Source: an uncultured Candidatus Saccharibacteria bacterium (lineage in GTDB: Bacteria; Patescibacteriota; Minisyncoccia; Phycocordibacterales; 2-01-FULL-51-21). From it: a stretch of 21,507 nucleotides of DNA. The notes under the pieces are model-generated. The model was not told the DNA's origin, searched no databases, and saw only the letters and a list, made by a program, of their open reading frames with translations. The stretch is from assembly GCA_964348955.1 (NCBI GenBank), contig CAYGEN010000001.1, positions 1,273 through 22,779 of the forward strand, read 5' to 3'. This document shows positions 5,961 to 21,507 of the stretch, piece after piece. The first letter of the stretch is position 1; each line of letters starts with the position of its first letter. Both the position numbers and the translations under genes were made by a program.

Positions 5961-7481
5961 TTGCTTCCCCAAAATATGCCAACCGAAACGATTTACAACC
6001 AATCCGTGCGGCAACCCGTCATTGCGATCCTCGGGCATATTGACCATGGCAAATCAACGCTTCTTGATTACATCCGCGAGACGAATATTGTAGAAACCGA
6101 AGCCGGTAACATCACCCAGCGCCTATCCGCCTATGAGGTTGTACACAAGAACCCGGGCGGCATAGAGCGAAAAATCACCTTTCTGGACACCCCCGGGCAT
6201 GAGGCATTCGTCTCCATGCGAAGTCGCGGCGTCGGCGTCGCCGACATCGTCGTTTTAGTGATTTCAGCCGAGGAGGGCGTTAAAGCGCAAACAATTGAGG
6301 GTCTCAAAACTATTTCTGAAGCTGGTATCCCCTACATTGTCGCCATCAATAAAATTGACAAGCCACAGGCGGACATTGAGCGCACCAAGAACTCACTTCT
6401 TGAAAATGGCATCTACCTTGAGGGGTACGGCGGTGATGTGCCCTTCGTACCCATCTCTGCGAAAACGGGTGCCGGGGTACCGGAGCTCTTGGACATGATG
6501 CTACTCGTCGCCGACCTCGCCGAACTCAAAACTGACCCCGCAAAAAACGCTACGGGGTTTGTTATTGAGGCGCACCTTGACCAAAAAAAAGGTATCGCGG
6601 CAACGCTTATCGTCTTGGACGGCACATTAAAAAGCGGTATGTTTCTCGTGGCAGGCGATGCGCTGGCTCCAACCAGAATTCTCCAGGATTTTTTGGGCAG
6701 ACCGCTACAAGAAGCGCATGCGGGCCAGCCGGTCCGTGTCATCGGCTGGAATAAAATTCCGCTGACGGGAATACCGTTCACTGCTTACGAAAAAAAGAAA
6801 GACGCGGAAGCGGCAACGAAAATTGCACCGCCCGCTAAATCGCCGGATTCTTTGGAACTTCCGCCACGAGAAAGAGGAAGTGTGCTTTTACCTCTTATCC
6901 TCAAGGCAGATACCGCCGGGACGCTTGATGCCATTTTGCACGAACTTGGAAAAATTGAGGGCGACCGCGTGCGTATAAAAATTCTCCAAAGAGGAACGGG
7001 CAATGTTTCCGAGGGTGACCTCAAACTCGCGCAGAGCGTACCTGGTGCCGTCATCGTGCGATTTAACAGCGGCATTGATGGGACGGCGGCGGACATTGCC
7101 GCGCGCTTGAACATTCAAGTGGAACACTTTACCGTCATTTATGAATTTTCAAAGTGGGCGGGGGAAGAAATGAACAAGCGTCGGCCTGTGGAAGAGGTGA
7201 AGGAAATCACAGGTCGCGCTAAAGTGTTGAAGATTTTCAGCAAGATGAAAGACCGCCAGGTGCTCGGTGCGCGCATACTTGAGGGGTCCCTTTCCCTTAA
7301 CGCCTCGGTAAAAATCATGCGGCGCGGTGAACCGTTAGGCATTGGTTCGATTGTTAATTTGCAGCAACAGAAAGTGGATGTAAAAAAGGTTGGAGAAGGC
7401 GAATTCGGCGGAGAAATAAAGGCGAAGATTGATGCCGCCCCGGGAGACGAGCTTGAAGGGTTCGTTATGGTAAAAAAATAA
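5961..7481 (+). CDS. infB: Translation initiation factor IF-2, compact form lacking N-terminal domains. The likely start is the ATG at 5976.
   Basis: The GTPase motifs are present: G1 AILGHIDHGKSTLLD, G3 DTPGHEAF, G4 NKID and SAKTG. The IF-2 beta-barrel and C-terminal domains follow. The ORF track begins at TTG 5961, and an in-frame ATG (MPTETIY) lies 15 nt later. It is followed by rbfA, which is the conserved synteny. Confidence 0.9.
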   Translation: MLPQNMPTETIYNQSVRQPVIAILGHIDHGKSTLLDYIRETNIVETEAGNITQRLSAYEVVHKNPGGIERKITFLDTPGHEAFVSMRSRGVGVADIVVLVISAEEGVKAQTIEGLKTISEAGIPYIVAINKIDKPQADIERTKNSLLENGIYLEGYGGDVPFVPISAKTGAGVPELLDMMLLVADLAELKTDPAKNATGFVIEAHLDQKKGIAATLIVLDGTLKSGMFLVAGDALAPTRILQDFLGRPLQEAHAGQPVRVIGWNKIPLTGIPFTAYEKKKDAEAATKIAPPAKSPDSLELPPRERGSVLLPLILKADTAGTLDAILHELGKIEGDRVRIKILQRGTGNVSEGDLKLAQSVPGAVIVRFNSGIDGTAADIAARLNIQVEHFTVIYEFSKWAGEEMNKRRPVEEVKEITGRAKVLKIFSKMKDRQVLGARILEGSLSLNASVKIMRRGEPLGIGSIVNLQQQKVDVKKVGEGEFGGEIKAKIDAAPGDELEGFVMVKK

Positions 7482-10471: not shown

Positions 10472-10544
10472 CCGCCCATAGCTCAGTTGGTAGAGCTGCT
10501 CCCTCTTAAGGAGAAGGTCGCAGGTTCGAATCCTGCTGGGCGGA
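10472..10544 (+). tRNA. tRNA-Lys, anticodon CTT, no CCA encoded.
   Basis: The sequence reads CCGCCCA-TA-GCTC-AGTTGGTA-GAGC-T-GCTCC-CTCTTAA-GGAGA-AGGTC-GCAGG-TTCGAAT-CCTGC-TGGGCGG-A. The acceptor and T-arms are perfect, and there is one G-A mismatch at 27:43. Confidence 0.8.
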
Positions 10545-10767
10545 CTTGTACGCAAGTCTGCCGACGCAAGCGAACTGCTTCGCTTGTGTGGACAGGATTG
10601 GAACGGCGGAGTATGTCCTCGGCTTGTTGAAGGAATGCGAGCCGCGTCCAGAGGCACTTAGTGAGTTGCTAGCCAGCAACGAGATTAGTGACCGCGGGAC
10701 GAATCCTGCTCTCTAGACTGTAAGGAAGTTCTTACAATGTAATTAAAATGTTTATTCGTGTTCATTC

Positions 10768-10849
10768 GCTGGGGTGGCGAAATTGGTAGACGCGCTAGCC
10801 TTAGGAGCTAGTGCCGCAAGGCATGGGAGTTCGAGTCTCCCCCCCAGCA
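10768..10849 (+). tRNA. tRNA-Leu, anticodon TAG, type II, no CCA encoded.
   Basis: The acceptor GCTGGGG pairs with CCCCAGC. The D-arm is of the long Leu type. The anticodon arm is CTAGC-CTTAGGA-GCTAG. The variable arm is TGCCGCAAGGCAT and the T-arm is GGGAG-TTCGAGT-CTCCC. Confidence 0.82.
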
Positions 10850-10962
10850 CTAGAAGTTATGTTTGCCAGTTTGCAGACACCTTTAAAACGCGTAGCTCCT
10901 ACCTTACCGCAAAGCAAAACGAGGGACGGCGGTCTTTCGGCTGCGTTTTAATGCACGCCTCT

Positions 10963-11998
10963 GAATTAGCACTCTAATTGCACCACTCACTTCTTCAGGA
11001 ATATGGTGCGCGGATTCTTGAATTCGAGCCGTTTCCGTGGGCGCTCGTTCAGTCTGCGCACCGCATGCGCAAGCTCCTCGGACGTGATCAAGTTGAAGTC
11101 GAGTGAGCTCGGGAAATACTGCCGCAAGAGGCCGTTTGTATTTTCGTTTGAGCCACGCTCCCAGAAGTGGTACGGGTATGCAAAGAACACGGTGGAGCCA
11201 CTCTTTTTCTCCAGTCTCTCCCAGTCTGAAAACTCAGGTCCGTTGTCGAGAGTGAAAGTCTTGCGCTTTGCTTTCGGAATACTGCGGAAGTGCTGGAGCG
11301 TGAGCGACGTGAGGAGTGCTGCGCGCATCTTGGGCAGAAGAAAAGCAATAAGGTATCCGCTCCGGCGATCCACAAAGGTCACGATGCGCACCCGCTTGTC
11401 ACGTCCCTGCACCGTGTCTCCCTCCCAGTCGCCAAGCCGGCCACGGCGCTCGACGACAGAAGGCCGTTCGTCAATACGACGCTTCTTTGCTTGCTCTCTG
11501 GTCCTCTCTCGTATCTTCGTCCCACGCCTCCTGCGGTATTTTCCTTTCTTTGAGCGCAGGAACTGCTTGAGGTGTGGAGCTCGTTCGTGGATGTATCGGT
11601 ATATGGTGCTAGCGCTCACGCACCGGAGAACACCCGCAATCTGTTCGGGCGACTGATGCTCCTTGAGGAGCTTCACGACGGTGCGCAAGAGCGCACCTTT
11701 CAGTATGCGAATGCCTTCCATGGCTGCAATGCGCGTCATACGCTTGCGTCGTCTCACCTCACGTATGTCATATCCTTCCCGACCGCCATGGTCACGCACG
11801 TGCCGAGAAACCACACTGTGGTCCTTGCCGATCGTCTCGGCTATTGCGCGAATACTGTATCCAGCCGTGAGCAATCGAACGATGACCGGCCATTCGGCCG
11901 GTCCAATGTGGGTATGTGCCATATGCACCGAAGTATGGGCGCCCACAAAGGTGGTGCAATTAGCCTGCAAACTTTGGTGCAATTAGGATGAGAATTCA
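10963..11998 (-). mobile_element. IS30-family insertion sequence (~1036 bp) with imperfect ~24-bp terminal inverted repeats
   Basis: IRR is at 10963..10986 (tgaattagcactctaattgcacca). IRL is at 11975..11998 (reverse complement tgaattctcatcctaattgcacca). These match at 20 of 24 positions, including a perfect outer tgaatt and an inner taattgcacca. A second subterminal copy of tggtgcaattag lies at 11954..11965. The flanking ct (10961-62 and 11999-12000) could be a 2-bp target-site duplication. Confidence 0.75.
10987..11920 (-). CDS. IS30-family DDE transposase. The ORF track extends to 11982, but the start is probably the ATG at 11920 (MAHTHIG...).
   Basis: An N-terminal HTH (RLLTAGYSIRAIAETIGKDHSVVSRHV) is present. 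The DDE motifs are GDWEGDTV, TLDNGPEF and ERGSNENTNGLLRQYFP, the last of which is IS30-typical. The 3' end overlaps IRR, as is usual for IS30. Confidence 0.9.
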
Positions 11999-12101: not shown

Positions 12102-13472
12102 ATGGCTACTCAACGAAAGCGAGGAGGCACTCCACGTCCACCAATAGCACCAAAAGACTGGACGGGGATTGCTAAGTTTGAGCTTAAACAACTCTTCAAT
12201 GAACTGCGAAGCATTGTTGGTTATACTGATGCGCACGGAAAGCGCCACAAAGGGTCACTCGAAAAAACGCTTGAGCTGGAAGCGCAAAACGCACCCGAGC
12301 TTGCGGAAAACAAAAATCTGTACTGGAAAGTAATCGGGTTCTACATCGGCATGCAAATTTCTCTCATCTTTGCGTGCTTTCGGTACAACCTGTACAGTCA
12401 TCCGCTAGCACTCGATGGCCTCACCATCAACATCGGGCTTACCGCTCTATTGTTCCAATTCGGCCACCTCATCGCATCATTGCGCTCAGTGGAAGTGGAC
12501 GAACTTGCCGGCGCCCTCTTCTTTGGACGGCCGACAACTAAACCAACAAACGGTCTATGGCTCATGCCGCTCGGATTACTTGCGCTTCTAAAAGAAAAAA
12601 GGATAATACGGGACTTCTTGTTTCCGGGCCCGCAGGAAAAAATCTTCCGCTTAACTACTGAGCAAGCAAAAAAAAGGGAGGATGGCGAAAACATCCCCCT
12701 GGACAAAGAAGGTAAACCACTCATGGTGAAGCCAATTTTCATCACTACTGGCAAACCACGTGGAGATGTTAGCGACAAAAGTGATACGCTGGACCGCCAG
12801 TTCACCATTGACGTCTCATGGTTTATCCAACTTCGGATGAGTGACAAGCATGGTGGTATCTTCCGAATCTATCGCAACATCGGCCGAGGAGAAGATGCTT
12901 GGGAGCAAGCCGAAAATCTCATTAAAGAGCAGGGGGTCAGGGCGCTCCGCGGAATTTTCACAACCCTTACCCCGGCAACCATCATCGCCAATGAAAAGCT
13001 GGTGTCTGACGTCTTCGCGCTCATCTTGACCGAAATCATGATGCGCCGCGGATTTCAAGTGATGGATGGCGGGATCACCGACCTCAACATAAGTCACGAG
13101 ACAAATATTGCGTTGCAGGAAGCACAAACCAGAGCGCCACTAAAAAAGCTGGCCACTATCATTGAGGCTGAAGGAGAGCGGGATCGGCTGACGGAAATCG
13201 GCAAAGGTGTAGCCGAAGCTGAACGACTGCGACTTGTTGCCCTCGGTGAGGGTTACAAGCGAATCAGAGATGCCACCGGTGTAAGTGGTGAAGCGGCACT
13301 TGCGTCGGAAACCGCAAAAATAGTCTTGGCAAATTCGGATACGGTTTTGATTGGCACCGATGGACTTAGGGAAGCTCTTGGCTTTCTTGTAACAGCCAAG
13401 AGCTTTTTTGAAAGGACAAGAACACCGCTGGGAATCGCAACCGAACCAACACAAACGGAAGGGAATGAGTAA
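12102..13472 (+). CDS. SPFH/band-7 (stomatin/HflK/C-like) domain protein, with an ~80-aa basic N-terminal cytoplasmic extension and two TM helices
   Basis: The 456-aa product has two TM helices (IGFYIGMQISLIFACF and LTINIGLTALLFQFGHLIASL). The SPFH core reads VEVDELAGALFFGRPT..GLWLMPLGL....FTIDVSWFIQLRMSD..IFRIY, followed by a long EA-rich helical region (AEGERDRLTEIGKGVAEAERLRLVALGEGY) that is typical of band-7 proteins. Confidence 0.8.
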   Translation: MATQRKRGGTPRPPIAPKDWTGIAKFELKQLFNELRSIVGYTDAHGKRHKGSLEKTLELEAQNAPELAENKNLYWKVIGFYIGMQISLIFACFRYNLYSHPLALDGLTINIGLTALLFQFGHLIASLRSVEVDELAGALFFGRPTTKPTNGLWLMPLGLLALLKEKRIIRDFLFPGPQEKIFRLTTEQAKKREDGENIPLDKEGKPLMVKPIFITTGKPRGDVSDKSDTLDRQFTIDVSWFIQLRMSDKHGGIFRIYRNIGRGEDAWEQAENLIKEQGVRALRGIFTTLTPATIIANEKLVSDVFALILTEIMMRRGFQVMDGGITDLNISHETNIALQEAQTRAPLKKLATIIEAEGERDRLTEIGKGVAEAERLRLVALGEGYKRIRDATGVSGEAALASETAKIVLANSDTVLIGTDGLREALGFLVTAKSFFERTRTPLGIATEPTQTEGNE

Positions 13473-14392
13473 TGGCGGGCGCAATTAAGATAGTCAGAGA
13501 CTGGCTCGGCAAACAATGGACCAAAACGAGCGGAAGGAGCCGCACAACGAATACGACAGCGGGGACTTGGCTAAAGGCAAATAGGTCTCTCGTTTCTGGT
13601 CTCTTTCTTGGACTTGTTCCTCTCCTGGCACTGTGGTTTTTTTCGCCAGCTGAAACAAGTCACGAAAGCCAAGGCTCACCAACACATTCCTCCGCAACGG
13701 AAAACGGAATACTGCTTGCAGTAATCATAGCCGCCGCCCTCATTATCCTATTGTTCTGGCAGCGACAAGCAGCATCAGCGGCATTAATCGGTGTTTTGGG
13801 TGGCAAACGCGCTGGAAGTGCGCTTAAGAGCATACTTAAGAGCACATGGGACTGGACCAAGGGAGAAAGGGCGTGGTCACTTCCGCTCCACCTAAGTGGA
13901 TTCATCCTGTTACATCTTGCGTTTGCAAACCTCTTCCCCGTAACATGGCACGCGTACTACGGAGGCGGGAGCAAGTTTTTCTTCCTCTCGCAGGCGCTTC
14001 TCTTGATGAGCGTAGCGCTACTCTCCATCAAGGGCGGGAAGGCAAAACTTCTGGCTCTTTCGCTACTCGCCATGCTTGCGATAAGCACTGTAAACTGGAT
14101 GGAAGAAAGTTTGTTTTGGCCGTCAGAGCAAACGGCCGACGTCTCGCCATTAAAAGTAGATACCGTGGTAGCGCCGGTAGGCAAACTGTCTCCGCCCATC
14201 AGTGTGCCGCTCAATTACTGTATGGATTGGACGGCCGCAAAAGAGAGCGAGCGAGAGCAATACGACGTGGTTACTGATGGAGTAGCCTACGAGGGAGGCT
14301 ATCCGAACGGGCGGCGCGCGCAGTTTCGCTCAAAGGTGGAATATCCGGTGCTCATACAGTACGAACTTTACCCAATGCCGTGCAGACGGTAA
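13472..14392 (+). CDS. Polytopic membrane protein of unknown function (5-6 TM), translationally coupled to the SPFH gene (TAATG overlap)
   Basis: The 306-aa product has several hydrophobic helices (LVSGLFLGLVPLLALWFF, ILLAVIIAAALIILLF, LSGFILLHLAFANLF, LLLMSVALLSI, LLALSLLAMLAISTV). The C-terminal ~90 aa are soluble. No family is recognised. Confidence 0.65.
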   Translation: MAGAIKIVRDWLGKQWTKTSGRSRTTNTTAGTWLKANRSLVSGLFLGLVPLLALWFFSPAETSHESQGSPTHSSATENGILLAVIIAAALIILLFWQRQAASAALIGVLGGKRAGSALKSILKSTWDWTKGERAWSLPLHLSGFILLHLAFANLFPVTWHAYYGGGSKFFFLSQALLLMSVALLSIKGGKAKLLALSLLAMLAISTVNWMEESLFWPSEQTADVSPLKVDTVVAPVGKLSPPISVPLNYCMDWTAAKESEREQYDVVTDGVAYEGGYPNGRRAQFRSKVEYPVLIQYELYPMPCRR

Positions 14393-14398
14393 TGGGTA

Positions 14399-14425
14399 GG
14401 CGAGGGTTAACAACCCTCGCTTTTT
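14399..14425 (+). terminator. Rho-independent terminator for the SPFH operon
   Basis: A stem gcgaggg-ttaacaa-ccctcgc is followed by TTTTT, 7 nt after the stop. Confidence 0.7.
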
Positions 14426-14474: not shown

Positions 14475-14729
14475 CTATGGCAGAGGCACACCAAAGGTTT
14501 TAGTAACAATGGCGAGAATGCCATAAAAACCAACCATAATAAACATGCCGATGACGCCCCAAACCATGTGCCGCTTCCCAGCGTTCCGCGCCTCGTCATT
14601 CTCGGCATTCAAAATAAATTGGAAAATGCCCCACATAAAAAAAACGAGTGCCGCCACAAAGAGCAGTTGAAGTATCGGATTAATAATAAAAATATTAATC
14701 CGCCCGATGAGCGCGCTGACCGAGTCCAT
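14475..14729 (-). CDS. Small two-helix membrane protein, a paralog of the pilin-like family (P1). It lacks the signal peptide.
   Basis: The 84-aa product aligns with the mature part of the 15262..15693 product. DSVSALIGRINIF..LLFVAALVFFMWGIFQFIL..NAGKRHMVWGVIGMFIMVGFYGILAIVTKTFGV matches DSVLRIFGDLIN..IVVALALLYFFWGLAKYIL..SGLNMMIWGIIALFVMVAVWGLVQVLVQTFNV. Confidence 0.6.
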   Translation of the reverse strand: MDSVSALIGRINIFIINPILQLLFVAALVFFMWGIFQFILNAENDEARNAGKRHMVWGVIGMFIMVGFYGILAIVTKTFGVPLP

Positions 14730-14751
14730 TATGATGAGTTAGGGCTTAAGA

Positions 14752-15084
14752 TTACCGAACAAATGGCACTTTGGTACCCCCACCCGCCTGTACATTAAAT
14801 GTTTGCACAAGCACCTGTACCAACCCCCACACGGCGACCATCACGAAAAGCGCGATGATACCCCATATCATCATATTGAGACCGCTTGCTTTTGACTCTG
14901 GGTCTCCGGTGGCAAGAATATATTTCGCCAAACCCCAGAAGAAGTAGAGGAGGGCGAGAGCGACAACGATTGGGGTCGCCTGATTGATGAGGTCGCCAAA
15001 TATCCTCAAGACACTATCAAGCGTCGCGGCAAATGCGATGGCGGGTGATAAGAACAGCGCGGTACTAATTAAGATTTTTTTCAT
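14752..15084 (-). CDS. Pilin-like small secreted membrane protein (P2), a truncated duplicate of P3
   Basis: The first 108 aa are identical to the 15262..15693 product because they are encoded within the 338-bp perfect repeat. The last two residues and the stop come from unique sequence at the repeat boundary. Confidence 0.55.
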   Translation of the reverse strand: MKKILISTALFLSPAIAFAATLDSVLRIFGDLINQATPIVVALALLYFFWGLAKYILATGDPESKASGLNMMIWGIIALFVMVAVWGLVQVLVQTFNVQAGGGTKVPFVR

Positions 15085-15095
15085 TTTGTATTAAA
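14758..15095. repeat. 338-bp perfect direct repeat, copy A (partner 15367..15704)
   Basis: Line-by-line comparison shows 100% identity over 338 bp, with the copy starts 609 bp apart. The boundaries lie at g/t before aacaaatggc and at c/t after cattttgtattaaa. Confidence 0.9.
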
Positions 15096-15261
15096 CTAAG
15101 ATACGCATTGATAATTTTAGGCAAATATTGCCACCACTCTTACTGAGAGCATACAATACCACTCTTACTGTGTACATATAGCGCCTGTGGACAGAAGCGA
15201 TACTGTGTCACCTATCCATAGTTGCCTCAAAAGGTATGGGTAACATTACCTTTTCCTTGGT

Positions 15262-15693
15262 TCATATCTCACAACCGGGAAGATTTGGATTGTCAATACA
15301 AAATCTTGAACCCCCACCCGATGCCTCGGGGTTAGACCCAAAAGGGGCTCCCCCAAACGGCTGTGTAACAAATGGCACTTTGGTACCCCCACCCGCCTGT
15401 ACATTAAATGTTTGCACAAGCACCTGTACCAACCCCCACACGGCGACCATCACGAAAAGCGCGATGATACCCCATATCATCATATTGAGACCGCTTGCTT
15501 TTGACTCTGGGTCTCCGGTGGCAAGAATATATTTCGCCAAACCCCAGAAGAAGTAGAGGAGGGCGAGAGCGACAACGATTGGGGTCGCCTGATTGATGAG
15601 GTCGCCAAATATCCTCAAGACACTATCAAGCGTCGCGGCAAATGCGATGGCGGGTGATAAGAACAGCGCGGTACTAATTAAGATTTTTTTCAT
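15262..15693 (-). CDS. VirB2/TrbC-like small secreted membrane protein (P3): Sec signal peptide, two hydrophobic helices and a Gly-rich tail
   Basis: The signal peptide is MKKILISTALFLSPAIAFA. Helix 1 is IVVALALLYFFWGLAKYIL, the loop is ATGDPESKASG, and helix 2 is IWGIIALFVMVAVWGLVQVLV. The C-terminal tail reads GGGTKVPFVTQPFGGAPFGSNPEASGGGSRF. This architecture matches T4SS pilin (VirB2/TrbC), but no HMM search was run. Confidence 0.6.
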   Translation of the reverse strand: MKKILISTALFLSPAIAFAATLDSVLRIFGDLINQATPIVVALALLYFFWGLAKYILATGDPESKASGLNMMIWGIIALFVMVAVWGLVQVLVQTFNVQAGGGTKVPFVTQPFGGAPFGSNPEASGGGSRFCIDNPNLPGCEI

Positions 15694-15704
15694 TTTGTAT
15701 TAAA
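15367..15704. repeat. 338-bp perfect direct repeat, copy B
   Basis: Identical to 14758..15095. It covers the 5' 326 nt of the P3 coding sequence plus 11 nt upstream of it. Confidence 0.9.
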
Positions 15705-15734
15705 TAAAAAAAATGATGCGTGTTGATTTAGAGA

Positions 15735-16142
15735 TCAAATATCAAAAAAATCAATACTAGGTTGAGGGGTATTTTGACTGCCCGCAGGGACTTGCGGAGG
15801 GTTTATACTGCCGCCAGTGCCTATTCCGAAGGTCTGGGCAATGACCTGCACCAACCCCCACACGGAGACCATCACGAAAAGCGCGATAATGCCCCATATC
15901 ATAAATTGCTTCCCGCTCTTGCGTGATTCTTCATCGTCTGCATTTAATATAAACTTCGCAAGACCCCAGAAAAACGCGAGGAGCGCAAGCGCCGCAACAA
16001 GCGGTATAGTGAGCGAGACGAGATCAGTGAGCGTTTTAATCAAATCTTTGAGGTCTTTGACCTGTGCGCCAAACGCCACGACAGGAGTAAGGACGGAAAA
16101 AACGGCAAGAAAAAGCGCGGGAAAATGTTTTTTTGTTTTCAT
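15735..16142 (-). CDS. VirB2/TrbC-like small secreted membrane protein (P4), a divergent paralog
   Basis: The signal peptide is MKTKKHFPALFLAVFSVLTPVVAFGA. Helix 1 is IPLVAALALLAFFWGLAKFIL and helix 2 is IWGIIALFVMVSVWGLVQVIA. A Pro/Gln-rich tail follows. The start overlaps the P5 stop (ATGA). Confidence 0.6.
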   Translation of the reverse strand: MKTKKHFPALFLAVFSVLTPVVAFGAQVKDLKDLIKTLTDLVSLTIPLVAALALLAFFWGLAKFILNADDEESRKSGKQFMIWGIIALFVMVSVWGLVQVIAQTFGIGTGGSINPPQVPAGSQNTPQPSIDFFDI

Positions 16143-16606
16143 TTGAGTGTGAGATGGATAGCCCCGCCATCCGCTCTAAGCTCCTTAACGGTGCCTTGAA
16201 TCGCCCGCGAGAGAACCGCCGCGCCGAGAACGAGAAGCGCACCGATGATAGTCCACAGAAGCACTTTTTTCGCGGTGGCAAGTTTTGTTTCGTTTCCCTG
16301 CGCCGCGACGAACAGAAAGCCGGTGTAGACAATAAAGAGAACGAGTATGGGGAATGCAATGGTAATGAGTACATCAAGCACCGCCGCCAAGAACGAATAG
16401 ATGTCGCGGTACTTGAGAGGATTTTGGAAGCCACTGCCGGGGTTTTGCATACCCCCGCTACCGGGGTTTTGCATACCGCCATCCTGGGCAAACACCAAAA
16501 GCGGGTTTAGGAGAAGAAACAGCGAGTACCTTGCTATACGGAACATGCGTTTGCCTCGTGCCATAGTTGCAAAAATATGATGGGTAAAGAATGGTCTCAT
16601 CGTCAT
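16139..16606 (-). CDS. VirB2/TrbC-like small membrane protein (P5), with a tandem GGMQNPGSG repeat after the signal sequence
   Basis: A signal-like segment (MFRIARYSLFLLLNPLLVFAQ) is followed by DGGMQNPGSGGMQNPGSG. Helix 1 is VLDVLITIAFPILVLFIVYTGFLFV and helix 2 is VLLWTIIGALLVLGAAVL. The start at 16606 overlaps the stop of the solute-binding-protein gene (ATGA). Confidence 0.55.
   Translation of the reverse strand: MTMRPFFTHHIFATMARGKRMFRIARYSLFLLLNPLLVFAQDGGMQNPGSGGMQNPGSGFQNPLKYRDIYSFLAAVLDVLITIAFPILVLFIVYTGFLFVAAQGNETKLATAKKVLLWTIIGALLVLGAAVLSRAIQGTVKELRADGGAIHLTLK
16435..16482. repeat. 24-bp tandem duplication (20/24 identical) inside the P5 coding sequence
   Basis: tgccggggttttgcatacccccgc is followed by taccggggttttgcataccgccat. 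On the minus strand this encodes GGMQNPGSG twice. Confidence 0.7.
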
Positions 16607-17892
16607 CGTAGCAGGTTGGCCATGTCGCGTGCGGCGCTCTGAACCGCCTCGCTCAAGCGCGCTTTGCCGGAGGTGGTATCTTCTATCATATTCTTAAAAA
16701 TGATATCTGTCTCCTCCGGGCTTGGGTCAAACCATGCGCGCGCGATGAGCGCCGAACTAAAGAACACACTCTGGTACGCCTGCGGAGGGTTTTGCGAAAG
16801 AAGTGCGCGAGAGACCGGGGGCAAAGAGCTCTGTAGAGAAAGCGCGGCAAGCGCGGCATCGCCAGAGAGCACGCTTGCCACTTGAAATGCGCCATTTGGA
16901 TTTCTTGCGCCGCGCGGAATGGAAAGCGCGGTCATGCGGCCAAAGGTAATGCTGGTTTTAGCATCAAGCGCCTGCGGCAGACGCGCTACATCAAAATTAA
17001 GATTCGGATTCGCATTCCGTATCGCCGGCAATTCGCTCGAAAAGCCGAAGTACATCGCGACGTCCCCCGCCGTAAACATTTCGCGGGCGTTTGGAAGCCC
17101 GCGGTTCCATGTGTAAGTATCTTTGGTCGGATTTGAAAATTCAGTGTAGAAGCGCAGAGCCGTCTCGGGCGCTTGCGGCGTAATCCCCGGCACATTATTC
17201 ATATCAAACGTTTCTTGGAACTCGCCCTGCGAAACCCGCACGATTGGGTTGCCGACTTGAAGAATAAGCGTCGCGAGAATGTCTTTGGCGTGGGGAATGT
17301 TGGCATATTCACCAAGCGGCACGGTGGCCCGCGTGACGGTACCCGCCGGATTTTTCTTCGTTATGATTTTACTCAAGGCAAAAAATTGGTCCCATGTGTT
17401 CGGGGGCAAGGCAACGCCCGCGGTTGCAAATAGGTCGCGGTTCCAATACATAACCATCGGGTCAATGGTGTACGGTATGCCGGCAATGCCTGCGGCGGAA
17501 AGGTAGATGCCGGCGGCGTCAAGATAGGTGTCTCTAAATACCCGCTCGGAAACGACCGAAAACGGTATCGGCATAATCTTATTGCCAAAACTTAAAATGC
17601 GGTCTTGCGGGAGAAGAAATATATCGGGGCCCGTGCCGGCGGCAATCGCATTCACCATATCGCTCTCGTAGGTGCGCGGGTCTTTTTCAACATAGCTCAC
17701 ATTGTTGAAATCGGCGTGGGTTTCGCGCACGCTTTGCAAAACGCTCTCCATGAGCGCCTGCGGCAAAGTGCCCCACATAGTCACCGCACCGATACCCTGC
17801 CCACTTTTCGCGCGGTAGGTCGCAAACACGACGACACCGACTACCGCCAGAAAAATAAAAGCGGCGAGAACGATTATATGAAATGGTTTCAT
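16603..17892 (-). CDS. Extracellular solute-binding protein (ABC-type family 1, MalE-like fold) with an N-terminal TM anchor. No cognate permease or ATPase is present in the window.
   Basis: The 429-aa product has an N-terminal TM helix (IIVLAAFIFLAVVGVVVFA). Typical SBP_bac_1 motifs follow: TMWGTLP, GTGPDIFLLPQD, GIPYTIDPMVMYWNRDLF and PNTWDQF. It overlaps the methyltransferase gene stop and the P5 start by ATGA. Confidence 0.75.
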   Translation of the reverse strand: MKPFHIIVLAAFIFLAVVGVVVFATYRAKSGQGIGAVTMWGTLPQALMESVLQSVRETHADFNNVSYVEKDPRTYESDMVNAIAAGTGPDIFLLPQDRILSFGNKIMPIPFSVVSERVFRDTYLDAAGIYLSAAGIAGIPYTIDPMVMYWNRDLFATAGVALPPNTWDQFFALSKIITKKNPAGTVTRATVPLGEYANIPHAKDILATLILQVGNPIVRVSQGEFQETFDMNNVPGITPQAPETALRFYTEFSNPTKDTYTWNRGLPNAREMFTAGDVAMYFGFSSELPAIRNANPNLNFDVARLPQALDAKTSITFGRMTALSIPRGARNPNGAFQVASVLSGDAALAALSLQSSLPPVSRALLSQNPPQAYQSVFFSSALIARAWFDPSPEETDIIFKNMIEDTTSGKARLSEAVQSAARDMANLLR

Positions 17893-18500
17893 GGCGTTGA
17901 TGAGGCAGTCGTGAGTTGCAAGCGCGCAATGACTCCCCAGTGATGCGCACCTGCATTGATGGTTCGCTGAACGCTGAAGCCCGCGCGTTCAAGGAGCGCC
18001 TGGGCTTCATTTTCCGTCAGTATTTCGGCAGGCGTAGGGCCAAGGCCGCCGAACGAATCAGCCCAATCAACCACAAGCGCGCGGCCTTTAGGGCGAAGCA
18101 CCCGCTTCATTTCGCCGAGAGCCGCCTCCTTGTCTTTAAGCTGGAAGAGCACGTTGCAGAGGAACACCGCGTCCACGCTCCCCTCCTTTAGTTTGGTATC
18201 GCCTGATTTTTCAAAGTCGCCGTGCAAGGGATAGATATTGTGCAGATACTCGGCGTGAGCGAGATTTTTGAGCCGCCGAAGAAGCTCCGGTTGAATATCA
18301 ATCGCGTACACGCGACCCGAGCCGACGGCACGCGCCGCCGCGAGCGCGTAGTGCCCGGAGCCGGTTCCAAAGTCGGCAACGTGATGTCCCTCTTCAAGAC
18401 CGAATTGCGCGATAATTTTTTCCGGCGCAGAAAATGCTCCCGCCTCATTTCGCGCGCTACTTTGCACTCGCGCGCGCGCTTGCGCTGTTTTTAATTCCAT
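17889..18500 (-). CDS. Class I SAM-dependent methyltransferase
   Basis: The 203-aa product has motif I VADFGTGSGHYALAAA, motif II RVYAIDIQPELL and motif post-II VDAVFLCNVL. It is the first gene of the minus-strand operon. Confidence 0.8.
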   Translation of the reverse strand: MELKTAQARARVQSSARNEAGAFSAPEKIIAQFGLEEGHHVADFGTGSGHYALAAARAVGSGRVYAIDIQPELLRRLKNLAHAEYLHNIYPLHGDFEKSGDTKLKEGSVDAVFLCNVLFQLKDKEAALGEMKRVLRPKGRALVVDWADSFGGLGPTPAEILTENEAQALLERAGFSVQRTINAGAHHWGVIARLQLTTASSTP

Positions 18501-18624
18501 TACTCTTTAGTATAGCCGCCGCAAGGCGCCACGACAACGGAGAAACTCACACCTCTCAATTTTCCGACCTACCGCAGCTACAGACTCCTGCAACCGCGCA
18601 TGTGCACGTTTGCGCGCCACGCCG

Positions 18625-18653
18625 TTGACTTCCCGAATCAAACGAGTTACATT
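18625..18653 (+). promoter_or_regulatory. Sigma70-like promoter TTGACT-N17-TACATT upstream of the 18687 gene, with a GGAGG RBS at 18677..18681
   Basis: The -35 TTGACT is at 18625..18630, the spacer is 17 nt, and the -10 TACATT is at 18648..18653. GGAGG lies 5 nt before the ATG. Confidence 0.45.
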
Positions 18654-18686
18654 CACACAAGATAAGATTCAGATGCGGAGGAAATC

Positions 18687-19151
18687 ATGCTCTATGCATT
18701 TACGGTCCCGAATGACATGCGAACCTTCATGCTCGCGCGCCGCGCAAACTCTTCCCTCAAAAAAACATCGAAGATGCTTAAGAAGGGTGATGTCGTGTTT
18801 ATGACACACACGAAGCGTGTGTTTCAATTTGAAGAGTATGACGGCGCCATACAGCTTGTCCTCAACATGAGGTGCGGGGGAAGCGTATTCTATCTCCTCG
18901 TTGAAGACTTGAGTCTTTTCGCGAAGCAGTGTGTATGTCAGTGGATGCTCGCATGCCTCAACCGTATGTCGAAGGAAAATAAGGAAGCGAGGAGCGAAGC
19001 GATTAATACCATGCGACTCATGGAAAGAGAGCTTTCCAAACACATCCGGGGACACCGCCAGCCAATTCTCACCGTTGTCGCCGGTCTTGATTTCTCGGAA
19101 AAGAGAGAAAGGGAGGCGGCACGCCATTTACCTGTGAAAATACCGCGCTAA
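18687..19151 (+). CDS. Hypothetical protein (154 aa), no family recognised
   Basis: The ORF has a strong RBS and promoter upstream and a strong terminator downstream. The composition is protein-like. Confidence 0.55.
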   Translation: MLYAFTVPNDMRTFMLARRANSSLKKTSKMLKKGDVVFMTHTKRVFQFEEYDGAIQLVLNMRCGGSVFYLLVEDLSLFAKQCVCQWMLACLNRMSKENKEARSEAINTMRLMERELSKHIRGHRQPILTVVAGLDFSEKREREAARHLPVKIPR

Positions 19152-19168
19152 ATGCGCCACACAGAATC

Positions 19169-19203
19169 CCCGCTTCGCCACCCCATGGCGAAGCGGTTTT
19201 CTT
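19169..19203 (+). terminator. Rho-independent terminator
   Basis: The stem cccgcttcgcca-cccca-tggcgaagcgg is followed by TTTTCTT. A second hairpin (ctcccgagg-tttaa-cctcgggag) lies at 19206..19228. Confidence 0.7.
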
Positions 19204-19274
19204 AACTCCCGAGGTTTAACCTCGGGAGCTTTACGCGAACCATCCCCCTGATTTCTACGGGAGAAAGTAATCAC

Positions 19275-19535
19275 TCACTTTTCTCCCGCCGTAATCTGAA
19301 TAGGACTTTGAATGCCGGGTTTCCACTCTGCATCAATATTTCCAAACCGTTTTTCATACTGCTCAAGATTGTGCGAGAGGGATTGAGAAAGTCTTTTAGC
19401 GTGTTGAGGAGTAAACGCAAAAACCGCCGCATTCGCTCCGGAGAAAAACGCCATCACAAACGATTCTTGGCTGGTGCCGATGAGAACATTATCGCAGTGC
19501 TGTTTTGGCACTTTGTTAAAATCAAATGTATCCAT
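19275..19535 (-). CDS. DUF3467-like small protein
   Basis: The 86-aa product reads ESFVMAFFSGANAAVFAFTPQHAKRLSQSLSHNLEQYEKRFGNI, which resembles the DUF3467 consensus as recalled from memory. Confidence 0.5.
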   Translation of the reverse strand: MDTFDFNKVPKQHCDNVLIGTSQESFVMAFFSGANAAVFAFTPQHAKRLSQSLSHNLEQYEKRFGNIDAEWKPGIQSPIQITAGEK

Positions 19536-19617
19536 AGTATCTCTTGTTACATGCTAATCACCGTGAATTACGAAACAAACTCTCTACGCTGGCGGGAAAG
19601 CAAAAAAACTGTAATTA

Positions 19618-21507
19618 TTACAAACACACCAGCGTGGCAATCGCGTCGCCTTGGTAGAGCTTCATTATGCGCACGCCTTGGGTCGCGCGGGAGAGTGTTG
19701 GGATTTCGCTCAAGTCAACACGTATGACTTGACCTTTGCGCGACATGACCACGACTTCCCCTTCGCCATCCTCGGCGATTTGCGCGCCGATGAGTGCGCC
19801 GGTTTTTTGCGTCACATTCATCGTCTTGATGCCGGAGCCGCCGCGCGACTGCACTTTGTATTCGGAAAGTTTGGTGCGCTTGCCGTAGCCAAGACTGGAG
19901 AGAACGAGGAGTTGCGGGTTTTTCATCGCCCTCCCGGCGATGTGCGCGGAAACGACGCGGTCTCCCTTACCGAGCTTGATGGCATGCACGCCTGCGGCGC
20001 CACGCCCCATAGCGCGGATGTCTCCTTCCTTAAATCTAATGGACTTCCCCTTGGAAGTTACCACCACGGCGGTGTCCCCTTTTTCCACAAATGACGTTGA
20101 GATGAGCTCGTCGGAGGGATGAATTTTTAAGGCAATGAGACCCGAGCGCCGCACATCGTGGAAGCTCTCGGCGGCGACTTTTTTTGCAATGCCTTCTTTC
20201 GTCACCATAAGAATGGCGAGCGATTCTTTCTTGCGCGATTCCTTCGGCATCGCAAGCACCGAGGTAACCTTTTCATTTGACTGAAGCGAAAGGTAATTCA
20301 CAATCGCCTTGCCTTTTGTCGCGCGCCGCCCCTCCGGCAAATCGTACATCTTTATCTGGTACGCCCGTCCCTTGTCGGTTAAAAAGAGAATGTCAGAGTG
20401 CGTAGAGGCCGTGAGAAAGTTCATCACGAAATCCTCTTCTTTCGTATTCAAATCAATGACCCCGACGCCGCCGCGCTTTTGCTTGCGGTACTCGCTTGGG
20501 TCGGTCCGTTTTACATAGCCGCCAGAGGTCAAGACGAGCACGTTCTCTTCCTCTTGAATCATATCCTCCATGGAAAGCGAAGTGATGCCTGTTTTCACCA
20601 CTCTCGTGCGGCGCGGGTCGCCATACTTTTTACCGACCTCTTCAAGCTCGGTCCGTACCCTCCTCAAAATATTTTTCGGCGCGGAAAGAAGCTCCTTGAG
20701 CAATTTGATGAGTGCTTGCACTTCTGTGAGCTCGTCTTCAATTTTCTTCCGCTCAAGGCCCGCGAGCTTCTGCAGGCGCATTTCAAGAATCGCCGTCGCC
20801 TGGATTTCGCTGAATTTAAACTGCGTGCAGAGCGCCGCATGCGCACTCGGCACATCTTTTGCGGCGCGAATGAGCTTCACGATGGCGTCAATGTGGTCAA
20901 GGGCTTTGGAGAGACCGAGCAAGATGTGCTCGCGCGCCTCGGCTTGCTTCAAGTCAAACTCCGCGCGGCGGCGCACAATAACCTGCCGATGCGCGATAAA
21001 TTCTTCCAGTATGCCTTTGAGCGAGAGCGTCTGAGGCACGCCGTCCACGAGCGCGACCATATTGAAATGGAAGGTGTCTTCCAGTTGCGTGTGTTTGTAG
21101 AGATAGTTGAGCACCTGCTTCGGCTGGGCGCCTGATTTAAGGTCAACGACAATGCGCGTTTCTCTCGTAGACTCGTCGCGCAAATCCCTGATGCCCTCAA
21201 GCTTTTTCTCGCGCACGAGGTCGGCCATTTTCATGATGAGGTCTGCTTTATTGACGCGATACGGAATGGAGCTGATGACAATTTGAAAATTTCCCTTCTT
21301 GTCTTCCACGACTTCCGCCTCGCCGCGCACGACGACGCCGCCCCGACCGCTTCCATACGCGTGCTCCAAGTCTTTCTGATTGAAAACGACGCCGCCCGTC
21401 GGGAAATCGGGTCCTTTCACAAACTGCAGGAGCTCATCGGTCGTCGCGCTTTTGTTTTCAATGAGGTGCACCGTGGCGGCAATAATTTCGCCGAGATTGT
21501 GCGGAGG
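19618..21507 (-). CDS. gyrA: DNA gyrase subunit A, partial. The 5' end lies beyond the window, and the Met at 21471 is internal.
   Basis: The frame stays open to the window edge, and the reverse complement of 21472..21507 encodes PPHNLGEIIAATV (conserved IPPHNL). Downstream are VKGPDFPTGG, a GyrA-box-like QKRGGVGV, and the C-terminal beta-pinwheel repeats. Confidence 0.9.
   Translation of the reverse strand, partial: PPHNLGEIIAATVHLIENKSATTDELLQFVKGPDFPTGGVVFNQKDLEHAYGSGRGGVVVRGEAEVVEDKKGNFQIVISSIPYRVNKADLIMKMADLVREKKLEGIRDLRDESTRETRIVVDLKSGAQPKQVLNYLYKHTQLEDTFHFNMVALVDGVPQTLSLKGILEEFIAHRQVIVRRRAEFDLKQAEAREHILLGLSKALDHIDAIVKLIRAAKDVPSAHAALCTQFKFSEIQATAILEMRLQKLAGLERKKIEDELTEVQALIKLLKELLSAPKNILRRVRTELEEVGKKYGDPRRTRVVKTGITSLSMEDMIQEEENVLVLTSGGYVKRTDPSEYRKQKRGGVGVIDLNTKEEDFVMNFLTASTHSDILFLTDKGRAYQIKMYDLPEGRRATKGKAIVNYLSLQSNEKVTSVLAMPKESRKKESLAILMVTKEGIAKKVAAESFHDVRRSGLIALKIHPSDELISTSFVEKGDTAVVVTSKGKSIRFKEGDIRAMGRGAAGVHAIKLGKGDRVVSAHIAGRAMKNPQLLVLSSLGYGKRTKLSEYKVQSRGGSGIKTMNVTQKTGALIGAQIAEDGEGEVVVMSRKGQVIRVDLSEIPTLSRATQGVRIMKLYQGDAIATLVCL

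Follow-up and report, generated by a model that had tools for sequence, protein, structure and literature searches.

The subject of this analysis is a block of seven genes in a stretch of patescibacterial DNA of 21,507 nucleotides (21.5 kb; contig CAYGEN010000001.1), the whole of which is referred to below as the window. The block occupies positions 14475–18500 and consists of seven co-directional open reading frames (ORFs) on the minus strand. These encode a methyltransferase (MTase), a solute-binding protein (SBP) and five small proteins, P1 to P5, which belong to a family of type IV secretion system (T4SS) pilins. An earlier examination of the letters alone, referred to here as the sequence-only reading, had picked out the block as an operon, and its claims are taken up below where the results bear on them.

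The first gene of the block (17889–18500, on the minus strand like all those that follow) encodes a class I S-adenosylmethionine (SAM)-dependent methyltransferase of 203 amino acids. It overlaps by four nucleotides (ATGA) the SBP gene (16603–17892), the product of which is a membrane-anchored, carbohydrate-type protein of 429 amino acids belonging to family 1 and resembling MalE. The pilin genes come next. P1 (16139–16606), a TrbC/VirB2-like pilin of type A in the classification given below, shares a second ATGA overlap with P2 (15735–16142), a type B pilin of 135 amino acids with a Pro/Gln-rich tail. P3 (15262–15693) is a type B pilin of 143 amino acids with a C-terminal Gly/Pro tail containing two cysteines. 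P4 (14752–15084; 110 amino acids) is a recent duplicate of P3, corresponding to P3 residues 1–108 without the tail, and P5 (14475–14729; 84 amino acids) is a short, leaderless, terminal type B pilin that consists of the hairpin only. Gaps of 41 nt, 177 nt and 22 nt separate P2 from P3, P3 from P4 and P4 from P5 respectively.

The junction between the SBP and P1 genes depends on where P1 starts. The longest ORF begins at 16606 and gives a third ATGA overlap. An alternative start at 16546 (M21) has a GAGG Shine–Dalgarno sequence and was chosen by the gene call of an independent assembly (L087, 135 amino acids); it is likely to be the true start, in which case P1 has 135 amino acids and the SBP and P1 genes would be separated by approximately 57 nt. 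Thus the description of the block as seven minus-strand genes chained by overlaps or short gaps stands for the gene set, the strand and two of the ATGA overlaps, and the third overlap is conditional on the choice of start.

Pilin family and ordered composition of the array

The five small proteins were compared with Pfam, in which the family PF18895 (T4SS_pilin) has a gathering cut-off of 26.6 bits for the whole-protein score. All five exceeded it, with 30.0 bits for P1, 43.9 for P2, 47.2 for P3, 47.3 for P4 and 32.9 for P5, and no other Pfam family reached its cut-off for any of them. PF18895 was likewise matched by 40/40 type A orthologues, by 41/41 terminal type B (P5-like) orthologues and by every one of 827 homologues of P2. 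The TrbC/VirB2 family PF04956 was not listed for any window protein at E ≤ 1; among the type A orthologues, 25/40 matched it at E ≤ 0.01, the best with an E value of 1.7e-8. These results bear out the sequence-only reading of the small proteins as VirB2/TrbC-like T4SS pilins.

Hydropathy and alignment showed that P1 to P4 each have a signal-peptide-like N-terminal segment followed by two hydrophobic helices. P5 has the two helices alone: it begins at the first helix, its ORF cannot be extended upstream, and the leaderless short form is conserved at the array end in related loci. The architecture first proposed for all five proteins, a Sec signal peptide followed by a hairpin, therefore applies to P1–P4 and fails for P5 in respect of the signal peptide, the hairpin itself being common to all. 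An AlphaFold2 model of P2 built with 50 homologues (pLDDT 77) contains helices at residues 7–27, 31–66 and 71–104, arranged as a predicted signal helix, a two-helix hairpin and a disordered tail. P1 combines the two-helix hairpin with an NPL motif and two copies of the repeat GGMQNPGSG. The repeats are encoded by a 24-nt tandem repeat at 16431–16478, and form a low-complexity spacer that follows the signal peptide and precedes the NPL motif, on the exported side.

Small size, two transmembrane (TM) helices and a tandem arrangement are also found among holins, bacteriocin or immunity proteins and other exported peptides. This resemblance is generic, and it is very improbable that P1–P5 are proteins of this sort. 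None of the small proteins had a match in PHROG, holins included, no Pfam family other than PF18895 reached its cut-off, and the surroundings hold housekeeping genes instead of a phage or bacteriocin context. Assignment to a holin or immunity family, which the sequence-only reading had named as an outcome that would count against it, was thus not seen.

When 363 array proteins were clustered by BLASTP score they fell into two deep groups, type A and type B. Profiles of the two groups are homologous, with a probability of 98 % in hhalign at 18 % identity. Within the window, P1 is 20–26 % identical to the other pilins, and P3 and P4 are identical to each other over 108 amino acids. Type A (P1-like) proteins are approximately 140 amino acids long, carry the NPL motif and a YAGFLFV…G-N…AK core, and occupy position 1 or positions 1–2 of the array; P1 itself fell into a cluster with 118 genes that stand first or second in the arrays of 76 loci. 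Type B (P2–P5-like) proteins follow the pattern FFWGL…GK…MIWGIIALFVMVSVWG. A short leaderless subgroup of type B, P5-like and about 85 amino acids long (designated Bs here), is almost always the last gene, and the best match of P5 was the last array gene in 69/76 related loci. The number of pilin genes per array varies from 2 to 8 across species, and the dominant orders are A-A-B-B-Bs and A-B-B-Bs. The order in the window is A-B-B-B-Bs, one of the B genes being freshly duplicated.

Outsized pilin-domain proteins, taken as the longest ORFs, were found at the array start in three related loci: L015 (4722–6347, 541 amino acids), L030 (8285–10340, 378/319 amino acids) and L073 (8285–10341, 292/388 amino acids). 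Either these are type A pilins extended by large extracellular regions, or the ORF calls run too far.

The duplication in the window is a pair of direct repeats of 338 nt that are 100 % identical. Copy 1 (14758–15095) covers P4 and 11 nt upstream of it, and copy 2 (15367–15704) covers the 5′ part of P3 and the corresponding 11 nt upstream. What the tandem repeat has doubled is the first 108 codons of a type B pilin gene, along with the ribosome-binding region in front of them. In the assembly index, an exact search with the SBP of the window gave no match, and P2 was present on just two short contigs, from independent short-read assemblies of the same organism; both contigs end inside repeat copy 2 (at 15608 and 15613), 92–97 nt in. 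Since breakage of independent assemblies inside the repeat is what a true duplication would be expected to cause, the repeat appears to be genuine and not an assembly artefact. P3 and P4 therefore represent an unusually recent amplification: in published patescibacterial arrays the identity within an array averages 25 % and reaches a maximum of 54 % (PMC12102498), compared with 100 % for this pair.

By analogy with the VirB2 families of Bartonella and Anaplasma, it has been proposed that pilin paralogues of this kind are interchangeable variants serving antigenic or host-range variation (PMC12102498). The variation in copy number from 2 to 8 between species would fit that proposal, as would the fresh type B duplication in the window. 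The order of the array speaks against it: a type A gene invariably opens the array and the leaderless short B nearly always closes it, across species in which the SBP is only 40–55 % identical. Such positional orthology argues for distinct, conserved roles in place of pure antigenic variation, and we consider the latter an improbable account of the array as a whole. The positional classes are probably structurally distinct subunits, forming for example the base, shaft and tip of a structure. The middle type B copies may nevertheless vary in the way proposed.

The solute-binding protein and conservation of gene order

The SBP matched the Pfam families SBP_bac_8 (E 7e-24) and SBP_bac_1 (E 1e-22), with scores of 85.5 and 81.7 bits (PF01547/PF13416) that lie above the cut-off. 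It has one N-terminal TM helix (residues 1–28, or more narrowly 3–25) followed by a short linker, and contains no cysteine for lipidation. In a profile search it matched CpMnBP1 (4r9f) with an E value of 4e-19. An AlphaFold2 model of the protein (pLDDT 91.5) shows the TM helix and the linker, followed by a canonical, two-lobed MalE-like fold to which no further domain is attached. The top Foldseek matches of this model were Tlet_1705 (5ci5), 4r9g and maltose-binding protein, at E values of about 1e-22, and the predicted fold is closest to binders of manno-oligosaccharides (CpMnBP1) and maltodextrins. Many aromatic residues are invariant. A carbohydrate is the most likely ligand of the SBP. Its homologues, approximately 430 amino acids long, number more than 900 and are all of Paceibacteria type; the closest (55–56 % identity) are from Candidatus Kaiserbacteria and the rest from Paceibacterota/Parcubacteria lineages. 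The window itself belongs to a Parcubacteria/Paceibacteria genome that has Kaiserbacteria as its nearest relatives.

Gene order was examined in two samples of related loci. The SBP-selected sample comprised 80 loci found with the SBP profile in GTDB contigs, one genome per species, and annotated with hidden Markov models built from the window proteins; at least 592 candidate stretches matched. The pilin-selected sample was obtained independently of the SBP by scanning metagenome contigs with a type B pilin profile, the type A alignment being too divergent to seed such a scan. The first three loci found as SBP homologues already showed gyrA, then the MTase, the SBP and four pilins, and then convergent genes for membrane and SPFH proteins.

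The SBP and the pilin array were found together throughout both samples. A pilin ORF began less than 400 nt past the SBP stop codon in 77 of the 79 SBP-selected loci with at least 600 nt available, and in the other two it began at 456 and 745 nt. Reciprocally, the SBP lay directly upstream of the array in 35/35 pilin-selected loci with enough upstream DNA. The SBP-to-pilin junction is thus invariant in these samples (79/79 and 35/35). The two genes are a median of about 5 nt apart and in many loci overlap by 4 nt, which together with the invariance of the junction points to co-translation. In the sampled loci nothing had been inserted at this junction.

The MTase is the most loosely attached member of the block. 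It matches the Pfam families Methyltransf_11/25/31 with E values of about 1e-17, has the glycine-rich SAM motif VADFGTGSG of class I Rossmann-type methyltransferases, and is without a TM segment as judged by hydropathy. No NCBIfam model or equivalog reached its cut-off for the MTase, and its best solved relative is an uncharacterised SAM methyltransferase (3dh0). An orthologue stood directly upstream of the SBP in 72/81 SBP-selected loci with upstream DNA and in 24/34 pilin-selected loci; it was missing or replaced in the remaining 9/81 and 10/34. Four loci (L010, L038, L042 and L050) have gyrA abutting the SBP, without the MTase, and in five others (L022, L031, L032, L035 and L041; ~6200–6950, minus strand) an IS200-like Y1 transposase, encoded on the opposite strand, stands in its place. 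The longest arrays, of seven or eight pilins, were seen in lineages in which the MTase has been lost or replaced by a transposase. Thus the link to the MTase is frequent and dispensable, and the enzyme is not integral to the module. The operon first proposed, which coupled all three kinds of gene, accordingly stands for the SBP and the pilins, with the MTase as its weakest member. Modification of the pilins by the MTase was considered and rejected: nothing pointed to it, the enzyme is cytoplasmic and generic, and it is absent from 10–30 % of otherwise intact modules.

The MTase belongs to a longer conserved housekeeping order that includes gyrA. In 71/83 related loci gyrA was present upstream on the same strand, usually 550–1000 nt from the SBP start, and genes further upstream, encoding Pth, S1 and a lactamase_B-fold protein, were often conserved as well. 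This raises the possibility that the linkage of SBP and pilins is frozen synteny around gyrA in which no function is shared: the pilins would serve a distant T4SS, the SBP would be an ordinary sugar-uptake receptor of an ATP-binding cassette (ABC) system whose permease and ATPase have their genes in another part of the genome, and the MTase would be a housekeeping enzyme. The wide conservation of the upstream order is consistent with such a view, as are the loss or replacement of the MTase with the rest left intact and the canonical, confidently modelled MalE-like fold of the SBP. The downstream flank, however, is much less conserved, save for a convergent SPFH-like gene (at least 32 loci), and yet the SBP–pilin junction, mostly with a short gap, is invariant in the samples. 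The region between gyrA and the MTase tolerates insertions (Fic, toxin–antitoxin genes and a transposase), whereas the junction between the SBP and the first pilin took none in the sampled loci. No ORF with a Walker A motif plus LSGGQ, or with an EAA motif, was found in 83 related loci (±7 kb), a search that covers nearby genes and leaves room for a distant partner. Frozen synteny with conventional uptake is the main rival to the interpretation given below, weakened by the invariant junction and the absence of a nearby ABC partner, and we regard it as doubtful while giving it some weight.

The window itself contains no ABC permease or ATPase, and no T4SS ATPase or channel genes. Within ±7 kb of the approximately 80 related loci there was no large P-loop ATPase, ABC ATPase signature, EAA-motif permease or T4SS ATPase. 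Two claims of the sequence-only reading, that VirB4/VirB6/VirD4-type machinery is absent nearby and that the TM-anchored SBP has no partner permease or ATPase, were therefore upheld beyond the window. Lack of conserved linkage, the second outcome that it had named as adverse, was contradicted by the very strong conservation of gene order in the related loci.

Known pilin systems and a proposed surface apparatus

Arrays of VirB2-like pilins have already been described in Patescibacteria (PMC12102498, PMC10633639), so that the locus is less novel than had been assumed. Quiñonero-Coronel et al. (2025) used PF18895 and PF04956 to detect 441 arrays of 2–11 genes, spread over 383 assemblies (PMC12102498). 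An array was defined there as at least two pilin genes, in tandem or one non-pilin gene apart, in a Patescibacteria genome. The window array is of this kind, with five tandem PF18895 genes and nearest homologues in Kaiserbacteria/Paceibacterota, and it shows the high divergence of the published arrays except for P3 and P4. According to the same survey, VirB4 is present in 2,417/3,035 Patescibacteria assemblies and tends to be found close to dnaA/dnaN in Paceibacteria, and pilins lie near virB4 in just 1,135/1,948 assemblies (PMC12102498). In cultured Paceibacteria, T4SS pilin genes rank with the most strongly expressed of those for secreted proteins (PMC10936435), and a 2025 review describes these systems as the sole monoderm T4SSs with pilins (PMC12857230).

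The closest characterised system is the six-gene PF18895 array of Ca. Southlakia epibionticum (SEML1_0014–0019), which is essential for epibiotic growth (PMC10633639, Wang et al. 2023). The Southlakia and other Patescibacteria arrays share with the window a tandem set of highly diverged PF18895 paralogues, some of them also matching PF04956, in a monoderm, host-dependent lineage; like the family of the window array, the Southlakia array mixes members that match PF18895 only with members that match both families. The two differ in context. The Southlakia array lies inside a T4SS cluster, with VirB6-like and PrgI genes beside it and without an SBP, whereas the window array is detached from T4SS genes, shares an operon with the MalE-like SBP and, in most loci, the MTase, is next to gyrA, and has the fixed order A, B, leaderless short B. 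Full-text literature searches found no paper linking PF18895-type pilins to a solute-binding protein. The SBP-coupled, T4SS-detached and ordered arrangement conserved across Paceibacteria thus appears to be an undescribed variant.

More distant relatives were also considered. The Gram-negative conjugative pilins TrbC/VirB2/TraA (PF04956; T-pilus, F-pilus and TraM of pKM101) resemble the window proteins in having a signal peptide, a two-helix hydrophobic hairpin and a short charged loop. They differ in that the window proteins miss PF04956 and are encoded in a monoderm host without a TraF-type cyclase, VirB5 or adjacent VirB3/4/6. The best NCBIfam match of P2, P3 and P5 was the Mbov_0395-family pilin-like conjugal transfer protein of Mycoplasma integrative and conjugative elements (NF045849), a small protein that likewise forms a hairpin and belongs to a monoderm T4SS; the scores of 30–34 bits are all below the 40-bit cut-off, and the window shows no context of such an element.

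Surface-anchored solute-binding proteins are encoded together with Gram-positive conjugation genes in two well-known cases, PrgZ of pCF10 and TraC of pAD1, where they are used as receptors and not purely for nutrition. Both belong to family 5, bind peptides in the manner of OppA and pass them to the chromosomal Opp permease. The SBP of the window, in contrast, is of the family-1 carbohydrate type, chromosomal and vertically inherited, and is translationally coupled to pilin genes.

On balance we think it probable, if by no means certain, that the block is a chromosomal operon, passed down vertically in Paceibacteria (Parcubacteria), and that it supplies pilin subunits to a patescibacterial T4SS-like surface apparatus. 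P1–P4 would enter the membrane through Sec and be cut by signal peptidase, and P5 would be inserted directly as a hairpin. A VirB4/VirB6/PrgI-type machine with genes in another part of the genome, near dnaA according to the literature on this class, would then draw the pilins out of the membrane pool and polymerise them into a hetero-oligomeric filament or conduit for contact with the host cell. The co-translated SBP, on the same membrane, might work with the filament as a receptor or adhesin for host-surface glycans, or might capture sugars derived from the host. The MTase would be co-transcribed in most lineages and be dispensable for the module.

Several points weigh against this interpretation. 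T4SS machinery was found neither in the window nor in the ±7 kb around approximately 80 related loci. Matches to solved VirB2-type pilins were not significant: a profile search with the pilin alignment against PDB sequences gave TraM of pKM101 (8cw4) at E 0.13, the hairpins being too simple for a significant match, and in a Foldseek search of the P2 model against the PDB the conjugation pilus of A. pernix (8dfu) ranked 16th, with an E value of 3 and a TM score of 0.59 on the target. Such scores are unsurprising for a very simple fold and speak neither for nor against a VirB2 structure. No PF18895 filament is known to have been visualised. Contact between the SBP and the pilins, and glycan binding by the SBP, are postulated. 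Finally, with the order Pth, S1, lactamase_B and gyrA conserved, the linkage could in part be frozen synteny in reduced genomes.

The absence of T4SS genes nearby is also a feature that would suit a different function for the hairpins, as membrane subunits of a new SBP-dependent transporter or channel independent of any T4SS. Such a system would loosely resemble the tripartite ATP-independent periplasmic (TRAP) and tripartite tricarboxylate transporters (TTT), with DctQ/TctB-like small subunits. Co-translation of the SBP with the small proteins would be natural in this case, as would subunit classes that are fixed and ordered; similarity to DctQ/TctB is present at a sub-threshold level, and one homologue carries the name ‘TRAP small permease subunit’ in its source. 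Against this, all members pass PF18895 and many type A proteins match TrbC/VirB2, while DctQ (PF04290) scored 13–17 bits, far below its cut-off of 28.3. We rejected assignment to the DctQ or TctB (PF07331) families: such sub-threshold scores are typical of matches in hydrophobic composition, and no DctM/TctA-like large subunit is present in the loci. In Southlakia, moreover, the homologous array lies inside a T4SS cluster and lacks an SBP. The chances of a T4SS-independent transporter of this type seem to us poor.

A stronger proposal than the supply of pilins to a T4SS-like apparatus is that the SBP and the ordered pilins make up one surface machine widespread in Paceibacteria. It could take the form of a VirB2-type hetero-oligomeric filament or conduit in a monoderm, coupled at its membrane base or tip to a carbohydrate-binding protein; host contact by a T4SS pilus would in that case be tied directly to the recognition or capture of host glycans or sugars. 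In a second version, the hairpins could themselves be the membrane component of an uptake system of a new, SBP-dependent kind. We hold this to be unlikely, though not far-fetched. Either version would mean that T4SS pilins are used in a functional class not recognised before. If the linkage is frozen synteny only, the locus is an ordinary member of a class that has already been described.

Patescibacteria account for a large share of bacterial diversity, and depend on their hosts through surface machines that are barely understood. To our knowledge, the patescibacterial T4SS-like system is the only T4SS that is essential for its owner. An operon that is strictly conserved in hundreds of Paceibacteria species, away from T4SS genes, offers two testable leads on this apparatus: that its pilins may be distinct structural subunits and not antigenic variants, and that a glycan-binding partner may confer on it host specificity or a role in nutrient capture. 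The SBP ectodomain is soluble and well predicted, and is an accessible entry point for ligand screening.

Flanking genes and signals

A GC-rich hairpin lies between convergent gene ends at 14398–14422, its 11-bp stem flanked by a T run on the plus strand and by an A run opposite. As judged by pattern matching only, it resembles a terminator that would act in both directions and close the operon at its 3′ end. At the other end, just upstream of the MTase start, a weak sigma-70-like promoter match (9/12) at 18509–18537 on the minus strand is only suggestive. Promoter and terminator scans of the region gave matches that were not above shuffled expectation, and both elements are to be read as positional hints.

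The same-strand upstream neighbour of the block is gyrA (19618–21471, minus strand; DNA_topoisoIV and DNA_gyraseA_C), which is cut off by the window end. The gap between gyrA and the MTase (18501–19617) is a variable islet that contains a DUF3467 gene (19275–19535) and two mutually overlapping ORFs without a family match. In Kaiserbacteria relatives the same islet holds Fic, YafQ-like and MazE-like genes (L001, 2254–5364; L003, 199–5249).

Convergent on the end of the pilin operon are two plus-strand genes that share one base, encoding an SPFH/Band-7-like protein of 456 amino acids (12102–13472) and a multi-TM protein of 306 amino acids (13472–14392). In at least 32 related loci a divergent SPFH-like gene likewise converges on the downstream end of the array, and it may share the neighbourhood with the operon. 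The other genes of the window encode ClpB, a trypsin-like protease, an IscS-like protein, DUF4446, initiation factor 2 (IF-2), RbfA, five tRNAs and an IS30 transposase, in addition to the SPFH protein, the membrane protein and gyrA. The IS30-type transposase (10987–11982, minus strand; HTH_38 and rve) lies between the tRNA cluster (tRNA-Lys 10472–10545, tRNA-Leu 10768–10850) and the SPFH gene. It had no homologue in any related locus, and is probably a lineage-specific insertion. IF-2 (5961–7481, plus strand) has just 506 amino acids, without the long N-terminal region of typical bacterial IF-2, and the protein is similarly about 500 amino acids long in related loci.

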